Of a stretch of DNA of 64,000 nucleotides, positions 49,940 through 52,306 are shown piece after piece. The notes beneath the pieces were generated by a model. It was not told the origin of the DNA, ran no database searches, and saw only the letters and a program-made list of their open reading frames with translations. The stretch is taken from the NCBI GenBank assembly GCA_030059665.1, contig JANVYR010000001.1, positions 576,001 to 640,000 of the forward strand, read 5' to 3'. This DNA is from Candidatus Calditenuis fumarioli (GTDB taxonomy: Archaea > Thermoproteota > Nitrososphaeria_A > Caldarchaeales > Calditenuaceae). The translations under genes were made by a program, and so were the position numbers. Position 1 is the stretch's first letter. Each line of letters starts with the position of its first letter.

Positions 49940-50362
49940 ATGGAAGGCGAGCTCAGACCCGAGATCGAGGACTGGTTCTATGAGGCCTGCGTCGACCTCG
50001 AGGAGGCGGAGGACGCCCTCAGCAGGGGAAGGAACAACTGGGCCTGCTTCGCAGCCCAGCAGGCCGCAGGGAAGGCCCTCAAGGCAGCGTACCTCGCGAT
50101 CAAGAGGAGGCGCTTCCCTAGGACCCACGACCTCCTCGAGCTTTACCTCGAGCTCCGGGGTGAGATCTCAGTCGGTGACGAGGGGAAGATCGGGCTCCTC
50201 TCGTCCTTCTACGAGCTGTCGAGATACCCCAACGCGGGCGTCAGGAGACCCTCCAGGTCGATCTCAAGCGACGTTGCCCGGGAAATGCTTAACCTCGCTA
50301 AGGAGGTAGTGAGGACGGTCGGTGAGAGGATTGGCCTCGCGTGCGGCCCCCAAACTCGGTGA
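49940..50362 (+). CDS. HEPN domain protein
   Basis: WACF.AQQAA.KALKA, RTHDL, Y..SRYP. Confidence 0.9.
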   Translation: MEGELRPEIEDWFYEACVDLEEAEDALSRGRNNWACFAAQQAAGKALKAAYLAIKRRRFPRTHDLLELYLELRGEISVGDEGKIGLLSSFYELSRYPNAGVRRPSRSISSDVAREMLNLAKEVVRTVGERIGLACGPQTR

Positions 50363-50690
50363 CCTCGGTTTGCCCGAAGACGTGAGGAGGAGGATCGAGA
50401 GGGCCGTCGAGGTGATCAGGAGCGTCGCGGCCGACGCGAGGGTTCTGCTCTTCGGGAGCTTCGCCCGAGGGGACTGGCTCGAGGAGAGCGACATCGACCT
50501 TCTGGTGATATCCGACGCGTTCGGGGGGATGAGCTACCTCGAAAGGCTCGAGAGGATAAAGAGGGCCCTTCTGGAGAACGGCCTCCCGAGGGTCCACGTG
50601 ATACCGCTGACGTGGGGCGAGCTTGAGGAATTGGGTGAGAGGAGCGTCGTGATCAGCGACGCGCCTGAGTATGCCGTGGAGGTGGTCTGA
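50322..50690 (+). CDS. Minimal nucleotidyltransferase (MNT), HEPN-MNT pair
   Basis: LFGSFARGD..EESDIDLLVIS. Confidence 0.9.
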   Translation: MRGLASRAAPKLGDLGLPEDVRRRIERAVEVIRSVAADARVLLFGSFARGDWLEESDIDLLVISDAFGGMSYLERLERIKRALLENGLPRVHVIPLTWGELEELGERSVVISDAPEYAVEVV

Positions 50691-50773: not shown

Positions 50774-50875
50774 CGGGCCCGGTGGGACTCGAACCCACGA
50801 CCTTCCGGTTAACAGCCGGGCGTTGAAGATATTGGGGGAATACCCCAATATACTCTTCCGCTGAGCTACGGGCCC
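50774..50875 (-). tRNA. tRNA-Asn(GTT) with a 30-nt non-canonical intron at 24/25 (50823-50852); CCA not encoded
   Basis: Spliced product is a 72-nt cloverleaf. Relaxed BHB: GAAG/CTTC helix, bulges AG|T and AA|C, intron hairpin ATATTGGGG/CCCCAATAT. C27-A43 mismatch. Confidence 0.92.
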
Positions 50876-50902
50876 ACGTACTGATTATTTTCCATCTTAG
50901 CA

Positions 50903-50908
50903 TTTAAA
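50903..50908 (-). promoter_or_regulatory. TATA box for the reconstituted tRNA-Asn
   Basis: TTTAAA about 28-33 nt upstream of the mature 5' end, inside the AT-rich element. Confidence 0.55.
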
Positions 50909-51055
50909 CCTTAGTAGACGAAAGAAGACACCGTTCGGATGAGCGTCAGCTCCGTCGATCTCTGCTCATCCTCATCGCTTACCGAAATCACATGATTAAC
51001 TCGATGATAAGAAAGGGAGTGATTTCAGTTAGCAGATGGTTGTCAGTATTGTTTA

Positions 51056-51170
51056 GGGGAGCCGGAATGAGGACCTCAGGCATTCGGCTGTTAATTGCTT
51101 CATCCCCCCTCGCGGTAGGTCTGCATTCGGCGCTCTATTGCCCAGGTCCCCATCCGGCTCTTTCCCCCGT
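51056..51170 (-). ncRNA. Dual-spacer guide RNA (tigRNA/bridge-RNA-like)
   Basis: Long hairpin with a GCGA tetraloop and a symmetric 13x13 loop. GCAA-N9-GAATGC occurs twice, and the spacers match the empty tRNA-Asn site on opposite strands. Confidence 0.85.
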
Positions 51171-51172
51171 TC

Positions 51173-51949
51173 TCACCTCTTCATCGCTTTTAGTGTATTC
51201 TTTACGGTTTTCAGGACCTCCCGCACCTCTTTGCCCTTGATCTTCTGCCTTCCCTTCACACTAATTGTCAGCGATTCTGTCGCATCTTTCAGCATTTTGT
51301 TGTACTTTCCGTCGTTCGGATAGTAGTTACCAGTATAGGTCAATATCTTCCTCAGCCCTAAGCTGAAGTCCACGTACAACAGCAGTTGGACCAAAGCTAC
51401 CCTGCCGTAGAGGCATTTGCCTGAGCTGATCCTCAATCTCTCCGATATCTGATGGATCGGTAGGAAGCTTCTCGCCAGTGCGTCTATCTCCCTGGCCAGC
51501 TTATCTTTCCGCCTCCTCAGGTGATTGATGAGATGTCTGTAGTGTGCCCTGGTCTCCTCATCGTCCGCTTCGCGTGACAGTTGCTTTACAAGTTTCAGGT
51601 GCGATTTCGTCGTCGTGTATTTGTGCAGAAGCCTTCTGACCTCCAGCTCCTTTCCTGTGAGCTCCCTGAAGAGGTGTTCCGGTATTCTAGCTAGGGCCCT
51701 GGCGTCGTCCTCGTCGCTCTTCGTCTCCCTGTACTTCTCTATGACATCAGTCCTCCTCAGGTAGAATATCCGGACGCCTCTAGCTAATAGCTCCTCGAAC
51801 TCCCTAAATCTGCTCGGTAGTATCGCATCCACGTACAGCTCGTCTCCGGCCTGAGCGGGTATGTCGCTGAGCTTCCTGAACCTCTTAACGACACCGTCGG
51901 CCACTACCACGTGATCCTTCCTCCAGTGGACGTCGGCGTAGATCTTCAT
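51173..51949 (-). CDS. Compact IS110/TasR-like protein: RuvC-like D6/D41/D79/D82, coiled coil, Nop/Tnp-like C-terminus
   Basis: IYADVH, YVDA, KSDEDDA (the KxDxxDA motif), YTG..YP..GKYN.MLK. AGGTGA SD precedes the ATG. Confidence 0.8.
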   Translation of the reverse strand: MKIYADVHWRKDHVVVADGVVKRFRKLSDIPAQAGDELYVDAILPSRFREFEELLARGVRIFYLRRTDVIEKYRETKSDEDDARALARIPEHLFRELTGKELEVRRLLHKYTTTKSHLKLVKQLSREADDEETRAHYRHLINHLRRRKDKLAREIDALARSFLPIHQISERLRISSGKCLYGRVALVQLLLYVDFSLGLRKILTYTGNYYPNDGKYNKMLKDATESLTISVKGRQKIKGKEVREVLKTVKNTLKAMKR

Positions 51950-52118
51950 ATCACATCACCTGCATAACCTGCATGAACGTCACCGTCAGCAAGTCATATG
52001 ATGGCGATCTATATCTGATCGTAATAGAGAAGGCAGGAGAAGCAGGGATTGATGTTAGGAACGTTGTGCGATATGTGTAGAGGATCGATCCTTCCATATC
52101 TCAAATTAACCTCCAACT

Positions 52119-52148
52119 CCGGGCGCTCTACCGCTGAGCTACGGGCCC
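52119..52148 (-). pseudogene. Orphan intronless tRNA-Asn 5' half (positions 1-31)
   Basis: GGGCCCGTAGCTCAGCGGTAGAGCGCCCGG is identical to the spliced tRNA-Asn 5' half except one D-loop base (T vs A), then breaks off into AT-rich sequence. Confidence 0.9.
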
Positions 52149-52155
52149 TTCTCCG

Positions 52156-52215
52156 GGGGCTCCGCCAAGGCTGAACTCATCACCAAGCAGCATTCACCTC
52201 CCCGGTCATCGCCCC
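52156..52215 (-). ncRNA. Candidate box C/D sRNA
   Basis: GGGGC/GCCCC terminal stem, C-like GATGA, C' GTGATGA, D-like CGGA. Guide TTCAGCCTTG is complementary to the conserved archaeal 16S CAAGGCUGAA. Confidence 0.4.
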
Positions 52216-52306
52216 GTCAAGGACGAATCACCTATCACTTCAACTTAACCGTCCAAGCCAGGCAGGGGAACCGGTTTAAACCCGTAGGGCACAACGGGCT
52301 GCGGGA

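Follow-up and report, generated by a model that had tools for sequence, protein, structure and literature searches.

Which enzyme placed an insertion of 1303 bp inside the tRNA-Asn(GUU) gene of the archaeon Candidatus Calditenuis fumarioli, and by what rule was the site chosen? The locus lies in a stretch of 64,000 nucleotides (nt) of the contig JANVYR010000001.1 (positions 576,001 to 640,000, hereafter the window). The insertion holds a single gene, an uninterrupted frame of 258 codons (51173-51949, reverse strand), which codes for the protein studied here, P0001. We found that the element also carries a structured RNA with two guides of 9 nt, which together spell the tRNA gene as it stands in a relative free of the element. 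On balance, P0001 is probably a dimeric, TasR-like, RNA-guided DNA endonuclease that drives a homing-type mobile element. It belongs to the TasR/IS110 class as a variant, a single-guide, serine-less RNA-guided enzyme coupled to a tRNA-rewriting element.

The insertion was defined by comparison with a same-genus genome, G026, in which the syntenic tRNA-Asn site is empty, uninterrupted and intron-less. At that site, the 30 nt that form an orphan fragment in the window run directly into the remaining tRNA, behind the same native upstream flank. This comparison indicates that 1303 bp were inserted after tRNA position 31, that the orphan fragment is the original 5′ part of the gene, and that the TTTAAA box, the new 5′ exon and the intron of the present gene were supplied by the element (Table 1). 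In the window, ARAGORN read the orphan fragment, a 1303-nt "intron" and the 3′ part as one tRNA-Asn. Rfam recognised a tRNA-Asn(GUU) at 50774-50875 (reverse strand) with an insertion of 38 nt in the D region according to its match; the intron of the rebuilt gene is 30 nt long and lies in the D-arm. The two 5′ parts form a direct repeat of 23 nt (22 of 23 identical; 50853-50875 and 52126-52148), and 7 further nt (CGCCCGG) are shared. The TTTAAA box of the spacer is probably the promoter of the rebuilt tRNA, and a similar box stands at the same distance in the copies L002, L003, L005 and L006.

A motif search of the whole genome found the hairpin intron only in three tRNAs, those behind the three element copies, and the intron is missing from the empty site of G026. 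The classical attP x attB scheme, with a native D-arm intron and an element-borne, intron-less 5′ fragment, was considered and rejected because the gene in G026 lacks the intron and runs on without a break from the flank that natively precedes the orphan, and because the intron occurs only beside elements. The site spelled by the guides is the element-free allele, as in G026 and as for a homing-type element, and it is destroyed by the insertion here. No intact 19-bp target is left in this genome, since the intron splits the rebuilt gene and the orphan fragment lacks the right half. Among public contigs (Logan, four runs) we found neither an empty tRNA-Asn joint nor a circle joint, and contigs cannot show absence; the joints listed in these four runs belong to other tRNA genes.

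The guide RNA is predicted to fold into an almost symmetric structure. The minimum free energy (MFE) of the stretch is -54.2 kcal/mol (z -4.1), and the RNAalifold consensus of 10 copies from several genomes contains 31 pairs, 5 of them with compensatory changes. From the outside inwards, the RNA consists of a long outer stem, a GCA:UGC closing stem, an internal loop, an inner stem and a hairpin. The internal loop is symmetric, with A-N9-GAA on each side; the inner stem covaries, and the apical hairpin is short and variable. The covariance model built on this structure (R1) gave 99.8 bits at the guide RNA of the window and recovered three copies only in the whole genome, each behind a paralogue of the P0001 gene and each as one hit. 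There is no tandem guide array, the element having a single unit and no tandem repeats.

The two arms of the single guide loop both address the target, and the consensus structure has no donor-binding loop. Guide 1 is found exactly in the orphan fragment and in the empty site of G026, and would pair with the bottom strand; next to guide 2 a further G, at 51085, also matches. The two guides span 19 contiguous bp (9+1+9) of the empty tRNA-Asn site on opposite strands, and the same contiguous, opposite-strand match was observed in 8 further copies. The first-pass annotation, made from the sequence of the window, had suggested intact tRNA-Asn alleles as the possible target, a proposal strongly supported by the two guides, which spell the empty site of G026. 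In every parsed copy the guides vary with the tRNA: they match Asn, Thr(GGU) and Lys(UUU) in this genome, and Thr, Arg(CCU), Arg(GCG)-like, Tyr and Met tRNAs in other genomes. In the copies L006, L017 and L024, whose carried 5′ exon is not identical to the orphan, guide 1 agrees with the orphan and so with the original target.

Table 1. Position, strand and basis of the parts of the element and of its tRNA-Asn site, numbered along the window
Feature	Position	Strand	Basis
3′ part (25/26 through 3′ end) of tRNA-Asn (GUU); first 7 nt duplicated in the orphan	50774..50822	-	Rfam, G026
30-nt hairpin intron at D-arm position 24/25, splitting the guide-1 target of the rebuilt gene	50823..50852	-	Rfam, motif search, fold
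tRNA-Asn 5′ exon as carried by the element; differs from the orphan at one D-loop base (A for T)	50853..50875	-	repeat, G026 comparison
Spacer with element-borne TTTAAA box (~50902-50909), ~30 nt upstream of the rebuilt tRNA	50876..51036	-	sequence
Guide RNA gene	51037..51179	-	RNAalifold consensus, covariance model, MFE
Guide 2, UUAACAGCC, antisense to the anticodon stem and loop (GGCTGTTAA)	51086..51094	-	inverted repeat I9
Guide 1, UAGAGCGCC, in sense with the 3′ strand of the tRNA D-stem and the beginning of the anticodon stem	51129..51137	-	sequence
P0001 gene: RuvC-like domain, coiled coil and Nop-like domain, 258 aa	51173..51949	-	open reading frame, family alignment, structure model
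Left arm, non-coding, not conserved in paralogous copies	51950..52118	-	blastn among three copies
Orphan 5′ fragment of the original tRNA-Asn (positions 1-31, intron-less), behind the native flank	52119..52148	-	repeat, G026 synteny, ARAGORN

Two further observations concern the RNA. The element occurs in hot springs covered by 12 studies. In two hot-spring metagenome runs (X3, X4), a second contig over 51080-51134 keeps the RNA scaffold and differs at four positions, which cluster in guide 2; this suggests that the community also contains a paralogue directed to a different tRNA. In L007, L008 and L011 (around 4844-4900 in L007), the loop strands are complementary to each other (GAGACCC and GGGUCU) and no tRNA lies nearby. 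This RNA may be a closed, non-guiding variant, or may have a palindromic target other than a tRNA.

The fold of P0001 was modeled with AlphaFold2 on an alignment of 30 family members (A2). The model is very confident (pLDDT, predicted local distance difference test, 95.8; pTM, predicted template modeling score, 0.91) and consists of a five-stranded RuvC-like alpha/beta domain (residues 1-97), two long antiparallel helices forming a coiled coil (99-127 and 131-159), and a helical C-terminal domain in which the loop 207-217 is the least confident stretch. A Foldseek search of the PDB returned full-length matches to IS621, ISCro4 and TasR, with E values from 2e-6 to 7e-6 and template modeling scores (TM) of 0.59-0.61. 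By VIA-align, the best match was TasR (9mty; Z 14.7 over 240 residues, root-mean-square deviation (rmsd) 4.5), followed by TasH (Z 13.2, rmsd 2.5-2.9), which matched the coiled coil and the Nop domain only (residues 98-258), by IS621 and ISCro4 (Z 12.5-13.0), with which the fold aligns from residue 1 onwards, and by the archaeal Nop5 (Z 7.3). A symmetric homodimer was predicted through residues 110-147, with an ipSAE (interaction prediction score from aligned errors) of 0.68, the best of 3 controls reaching 0.00; the runs agreed in 100% of the contacts and the partner chain had a pLDDT of at least 88. The mark was reached by 20 of 30 proteins with solved same-chain pairs and by 1 of 23 with solved single chains, a calibration that holds only roughly here because our own alignment was used for P0001. 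The pass of P0001 may also reflect mere likeness to the solved dimers of TasR, IS621 and Nop5. These models assign to P0001 a predicted fold of the IS110/TasR class, with a RuvC-like domain, a dimerising coiled coil and a Nop-like domain. The description of P0001 as a compact IS110/TasR-like effector of 258 amino acids, given by the first-pass annotation together with its reading of the C-terminal sequence and of a coiled coil, is therefore borne out, and the structural comparison it had proposed with the Tas and Nop proteins yielded the matches to TasR, TasH and Nop5 given above.

Sequence searches placed the protein in a family of its own. An exhaustive HMMER search gathered 81 clusters at E <= 1e-3, nearly all of 230-330 amino acids. 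A search with P0001 as a single sequence found no match in Pfam or among the PDB sequences, and the sole match in NCBIfam was a chance hit of a chorismate mutase in the coiled coil. The family profile matched residues 96-234 of TasH, its Nop region (E 4.9e-5); TasR itself was absent from the sequence-search results of the family. The N-terminal domain profile gave no signal against IS110 (probability 0.9%) nor against the PDB sequences, and the domain DEDD_Tnp_IS110 (PF01548) was touched weakly by five of the 30 members (best E 0.0098). In the same 30-member alignment, K77 and D82 are invariant, D6, D18 and D41 are each conserved in at least 90%, and D79 is the majority residue inside a K-S-D-x-x-D-A block. 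The four acidic residues D6, D41, D79 and D82 had been proposed earlier as a RuvC-like tetrad; all are present, three are conserved and D79 holds by majority, and from the alignment the predicted tetrad is D/D/(D)/D and is not strictly invariant. Pairwise ratios of nonsynonymous to synonymous substitution (dN/dS) among three close paralogues of this genome were 0.18-0.19, which indicates by sequence comparison that the gene is under purifying selection and is maintained, not a decaying copy.

What the family lacks is the serine of the IS110 recombinases. For comparison we took five IS110 transposases of archaea whose genomes belong to the same phylum; all five carry a G-L-x-P-x(3-4)-S-G block with an invariant Ser. 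In an alignment of the family profile with these five proteins by hhalign, the C-terminal domains align (E 2.4e-4, probability only 43%), and the Ser block falls into a 12-residue gap of the P0001 family, a placement that rests on this weak profile match. The first-pass annotation had reached the same deletion of a QSG segment by manual alignment. The 30 members conserve neither Ser nor Thr nor Tyr in the equivalent loop (207-217), and the paralogue P0004 is intact though it lacks 8 further residues of this loop. The profile comparison suggested with that annotation gave no match to PF02371 (Transposase_20) in any of the 30 members, next to the weak PF01548 hits. A partner acting in trans had been envisaged as well, and no candidate for it was found: this genome contains no Transposase_20 protein and the element no second gene.

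In the mechanism that we propose, a dimer with one guide RNA would unwind the intact tRNA gene, and each strand would be nicked by a RuvC site near the fifth base of each guide, in the manner of TasR, leaving 3′ overhangs of about 9-10 nt. Repair of the break would use a copy that bears the element, or would capture DNA of the element, and everything between the tRNA halves would be copied in. The intron would then be removed by the host tRNA-splicing endonuclease, by which the essential tRNA would be kept, and the native tRNA promoter, now facing the element, may express the reading frame and the guide. TasR cuts at the fifth spacer base and produces 3′ overhangs (PMC12045711). Transferred to this site, the rule would place one nick on the bottom strand, where the D-arm intron sits, and the other on the top strand, within the anticodon loop; the overhang would measure 9-10 nt, with a spacer register uncertain by one base. 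Past the intron position, the orphan fragments retain 7 nt (Asn), 7 nt (Thr), 9-11 nt (Lys), 6 nt (L006) and 9 nt (L024), all from the interval of this predicted overhang. By analogy with TasR, these 6-11 nt would represent processed, filled-in staggered ends; a fixed crossover would give a constant junction.

A hydrolytic RNA-guided nuclease with copy repair is favoured over a recombinase, the cleavage itself being predicted, because the serine is missing, because conserved element ends are absent and the left arms measure anything from 170 nt to about 11 kb, and because a single guide loop has both arms on the target and no donor loop exists. Moreover, the duplication of 7-11 bp fits a staggered cut of the TasR type, and TasR is the top structural match. 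Left arms that are not conserved are predicted by homing and not by a transposition that recognises element ends.

Several observations weigh against this reading. The structural match to the IS110 recombinases nearly equals the match to TasR, and the hallmark motif of IS110, K-[ST]-D-x-x-D-A, is present in the P0001 family. A Caldiarchaeum-type subclade, whose elements are naturally polymorphic (PMC3293823), has A, T or H in place of D79, which makes the catalytic set a tentative one. The copy number in relatives is that of an insertion sequence (IS), with more than 30 matches in some genomes, many of them at contig ends or with stop codons (G012, G029, G033 and G063 are multi-copy genomes), and some copies (L004, L007/L011) have no tRNA nearby. 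At L003, the native gene, the rebuilt gene and the guide all have CGACGGG, from which the orphan tRNA-Lys departs at 2 nt (CGGCCGG). At L024, element-derived sequence runs past the intron, and the right junction is therefore not simply the nick site. Finally, a new tRNA target requires a matched change in two guides and in the carried exon, for which homing alone is insufficient. The preference of the first-pass annotation for a homing nuclease over a recombinase thus stands as far as the indirect lines of evidence favour the nuclease, and falls short in that simple homing explains neither the IS-like copy numbers nor the retargeting.

Some of these points would be accommodated by a serine-independent RNA-guided recombinase or transposase derived from IS110, which we consider rather unlikely. 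It would join the element to the tRNA at the shared 7-bp core (CGCCCGG), perhaps via a circle, the joining being done by the RuvC site alone or together with another nucleophile or a host factor. Such an enzyme would be in line with the full-length fold match to IS621 and ISCro4, with the K-[ST]-D-x-x-D-A motif and the five weak matches to DEDD_Tnp_IS110, with the IS-like copy number and the copies at contig ends in relatives, with paralogues in three different tRNAs of one genome, and with a precise insertion that leaves a short sequence common to both junctions. The guide RNA also lies 3′ of the P0001 gene, an arrangement like that of IS1111-type elements, which have their RNA 3′ of the gene (seekRNA work). 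However, the recombinase would have to act without the catalytic Ser block and without any conserved replacement, through a loop that is partly deleted in the intact P0004, and no Transposase_20 protein is encoded in the genome to act in trans. The one guide loop has both arms on the target, and at most 4 and 3 core nt would match the putative circle junction. There are no conserved element termini, and the target length left on the orphan varies from 6 to 11 nt among copies, in contrast to the constant junction expected of a fixed crossover.

It is more improbable still that P0001 only binds DNA under RNA guidance and that the element is moved by another enzyme, for instance the integrase of a plasmid or virus, following Sugahara et al. 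The protein-RNA complex would then be a guard that represses, blocks or kills intact or competitor-occupied tRNA alleles, or an addiction module. Catalytically dead TasR and TasA are RNA-guided repressors (bioRxiv 10.64898/2026.09.09.750476), D79 is lost in one subclade, one copy lies at the end of a 12-kb island that contains plasmid-like genes as well as genes for a HerA/TrwB-like ATPase and winged helix-turn-helix (wHTH) proteins, and the layout of a fragment and a rebuilt tRNA resembles the borders of pNOB8-type integration (PMC3293823). Against a mere binder stand the copies of 1.3 and 1.6 kb, which contain no other gene, the 12-kb island, in which no integrase was seen, the conservation of D6, D41 and D82 throughout the family, the coupling of module and target in every parsed copy, and the multiplication of the family within genomes. 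That P0001 is a decayed, inactive remnant of an IS110 transposase is hardly credible. The protein is short in comparison with those of IS110, and neither a Pfam match nor the catalytic Ser is present; the data nevertheless contradict decay, for the short form is a family of its own with 81 clusters, nearly all of 230-330 amino acids, the dN/dS is about 0.18, the structure model is very confident, the partner RNA is conserved and covarying, and the flanking repeats of L003 are perfect or near-perfect. The first-pass annotation had itself named clustering with decayed IS110 copies, together with inactivity, as a finding that would refute its reading, and neither the dN/dS of 0.18-0.19 nor the separate family points to decay.

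The nuclease reading can be extended, tentatively and with slightly less than even confidence, to a self-contained RNA-guided homing system of about 260 amino acids and one 9+9-nt guide, which would plant non-canonical introns, orphan halves and possibly split genes in archaeal tRNAs. In this extended form, each invasion would rewrite the tRNA gene in its promoter, 5′ exon and intron, and would leave the gene immune. If this is true, the positions of the tRNA-Asn introns in sister species would be traces of an arms race, and the enzyme would be among the smallest programmable DNA-cutting enzymes, working at high temperature and needing no flanking motif.

The genome contains three close paralogues of the gene (100, 87 and 75% identity) and more distant ones. 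For the copy of the window, the target is tRNA-Asn(GUU), the insertion 1303 bp and the empty site that of G026; for L003, these are tRNA-Lys(UUU), about 1.6 kb and an empty site in G022; for L002, the target is tRNA-Thr(GGU) and the insertion about 12 kb, with the orphan fragment 12.1 kb upstream. By blastn, the three copies share only the reading frame and about 130 nt past the stop codon. The homology of L1 to L2 and L3 starts at codon 2 of the frame, and L2 and L3 share a different upstream segment of about 280 nt. Across the class, the family was found in 32 of 76 genomes, and in none of the 6 same-genus genomes. The gathering threshold of Rfam misses most rebuilt two-intron tRNAs and is unfit for counting how often the family as a whole is associated with tRNAs.

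Nine profile matches were obtained in this genome in all, including distant paralogues (35% identity) such as L004 (G000:C1:325048-325800); the latter have no tRNA within 1.5 kb, and their downstream non-coding sequence is not matched by the guide-RNA model. About 11 kb (L072, G000:C1:745600-758100) separate the orphan tRNA-Thr(GGU) fragment from the L002 paralogue and contain genes for XdhC, CoxL/M/S-like molybdoenzyme subunits, a HerA/TrwB-like ATPase and wHTH proteins. No integrase was recognisable in this ~12-kb interval, which represents either cargo of the element or a later rearrangement. At L003, the first 25 nt of the orphan equal the rebuilt copy, and the two deviating bases, which are similar to tRNA-Lys(CUU), fall within the stretch predicted to be the single-stranded overhang. 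As the anticodon stem of the orphan is a different one, co-conversion of the adjacent tRNA-Lys 3′ part from a donor was considered for this copy; it was rejected, because comparison with the empty site in G022 (L063) shows that the rebuilt gene is native-like and that it is the orphan which deviates.

Among known systems, the closest is TIGR-TasR, especially with its "stem-loop" tigRNA (Faure et al. 2025, PMC12045711; PDB 9mty), which shares the RuvC domain, the coiled-coil dimer and the Nop domain and is the best fold match. In both, the guide consists of two short spacers (8-12 nt in TasR, 9 nt here) embedded in a pseudo-symmetric RNA, a single contiguous site of 18-20 bp is paired by one spacer on each strand, no flanking motif is evident, and the protein has no catalytic serine. 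By analogy, the anatomy of the RNA of the window matches a single stem-loop tigRNA unit and not an IS110 bridge RNA. The differences are a tandem array in TasR and a single guide unit here, a length of about 330 amino acids and 258 here with a sequence identity of only 10-12%, and UG/CCA boxes in TaTasR where the guide loop here is flanked by A-N9-GAA. The hosts of TasR are viruses or candidate phyla radiation (CPR) bacteria, whereas the family described here resides in Caldarchaeales-like chromosomes, with the guide inside a mobile element and aimed at the empty site of that element in a host tRNA gene. The TIGR-Tas papers (including PMC12045711) make no mention of tRNA-targeting single-guide elements, and the supplements of the TIGR-Tas paper mention no Caldiarchaeum, Aigarchaeota or tRNA. 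In a full-text literature search, no paper linking such systems with tRNA introns was found.

The IS110 and IS1111 elements with bridge RNA or seekRNA (IS621, ISCro4; 8wt6, 8wt9, 9t56) are likewise matched over the full length of the fold (Z 12.5-13.0). They share the K-[ST]-D-x-x-D-A motif, a structured guide RNA encoded by the element, sequence-specific insertion, and a guide loop whose 5′ and 3′ sides address opposite target strands. In contrast to them, the present element has no Transposase_20 serine block, one loop instead of two, no donor-binding loop and no conserved ends, and it duplicates and repairs part of its target. In TnpB and IscB, too, a guide RNA encoded by the element directs a RuvC nuclease to the empty site, and repair reinstates the element; Meers and colleagues are said to have found in 2023 that these IS200/IS605 proteins with their omega-RNA cut the element-free site and promote re-copying. 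TnpB and IscB, however, form an unrelated family of single-guide monomers with a target-adjacent motif and a separate transposase, TnpA, and no second enzyme exists here. As with the homing endonucleases of archaeal introns, the uninterrupted allele is targeted, the site is destroyed and the function of the gene is kept by RNA splicing. Those endonucleases recognise their site by the protein and are encoded inside the spliced intron, whereas recognition here is by RNA guides, the gene lies outside the intron, and rescue comes from a duplicated 5′ exon, a new promoter and a small intron spliced by endonuclease.

An element of this kind has been described before. In the tRNA-Thr(GGU) gene of Caldiarchaeum subterraneum, Sugahara et al. 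(2012, PMC3293823) found a multi-copy insertion of 1,868 bp with an open reading frame "b" of 813 bp, a 5′ tRNA fragment left as an orphan, and a rebuilt tRNA whose new intron lies at 24/25. We found that the product of "b" (P0005) is 43-46% identical to P0001. Those authors proposed that the 24/25 intron came with the integrating element and blocks its re-invasion, and took the reading frame for a generic recombinase of a pNOB8-like plasmid acting by attP x attB recombination (PMC3293823). The guide RNA, the TasR/IS110 fold and the missing serine were not recognised, and that element sits in tRNA-Thr, whereas the one described here sits in tRNA-Asn and brings a different intron sequence.

Non-canonical introns, orphan halves and split tRNAs of archaea have so far been attributed only in general terms to integrating elements, and neither an enzyme nor a targeting rule has been put forward. 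At the present locus the DNA itself displays such a rule: two guides of 9 nt spell the D-stem and the anticodon arm, and the intron lies inside the guide target. The family links the TIGR-Tas nucleases with the IS110 recombinases: its motif and the placement of its RNA resemble IS110, its guide resembles TasR, and the serine is missing. It puts an RNA-guided scaffold to use in mobility while having neither a tandem array nor a donor loop. With 258 amino acids per subunit, a thermophilic host and no evident flanking motif, P0001 may interest those who seek compact programmable nucleases; as the enzyme is a single small gene, the model is directly testable in vitro.

The tRNA-Asn genes of sister species (L039, L046-L049) vary in the placement of their introns. 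G026 has none, G025 and G023 have an intron of 15-16 nt inside the guide target at about position 30/31, G024 has the canonical 37/38 intron, and G027 an intron in the region of the variable arm. The D-arm intron together with the element occurs in this genome only, as compared with the same-genus genomes G023-G027. These varied introns may be the trace of repeated invasion or of protection.

Upstream of the original tRNA-Asn start (52149-52260, reverse strand) lie a leader resembling a box C/D sRNA, with a weak Rfam match to sR60 at 52155-52185, and a TTTAAA box; both are also conserved in G026, upstream of its uninterrupted gene. The insertion has left this native promoter facing the reading frame of the element on the same strand, and the element may be expressed by read-through from it while giving the tRNA a new promoter. 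On the other side, next to the rebuilt tRNA (49940-50690, forward strand), two overlapping reading frames of 140 and 122 amino acids resemble a toxin-antitoxin pair of a HEPN protein and a minimal nucleotidyltransferase (GSFARG...DIDLLV motif).

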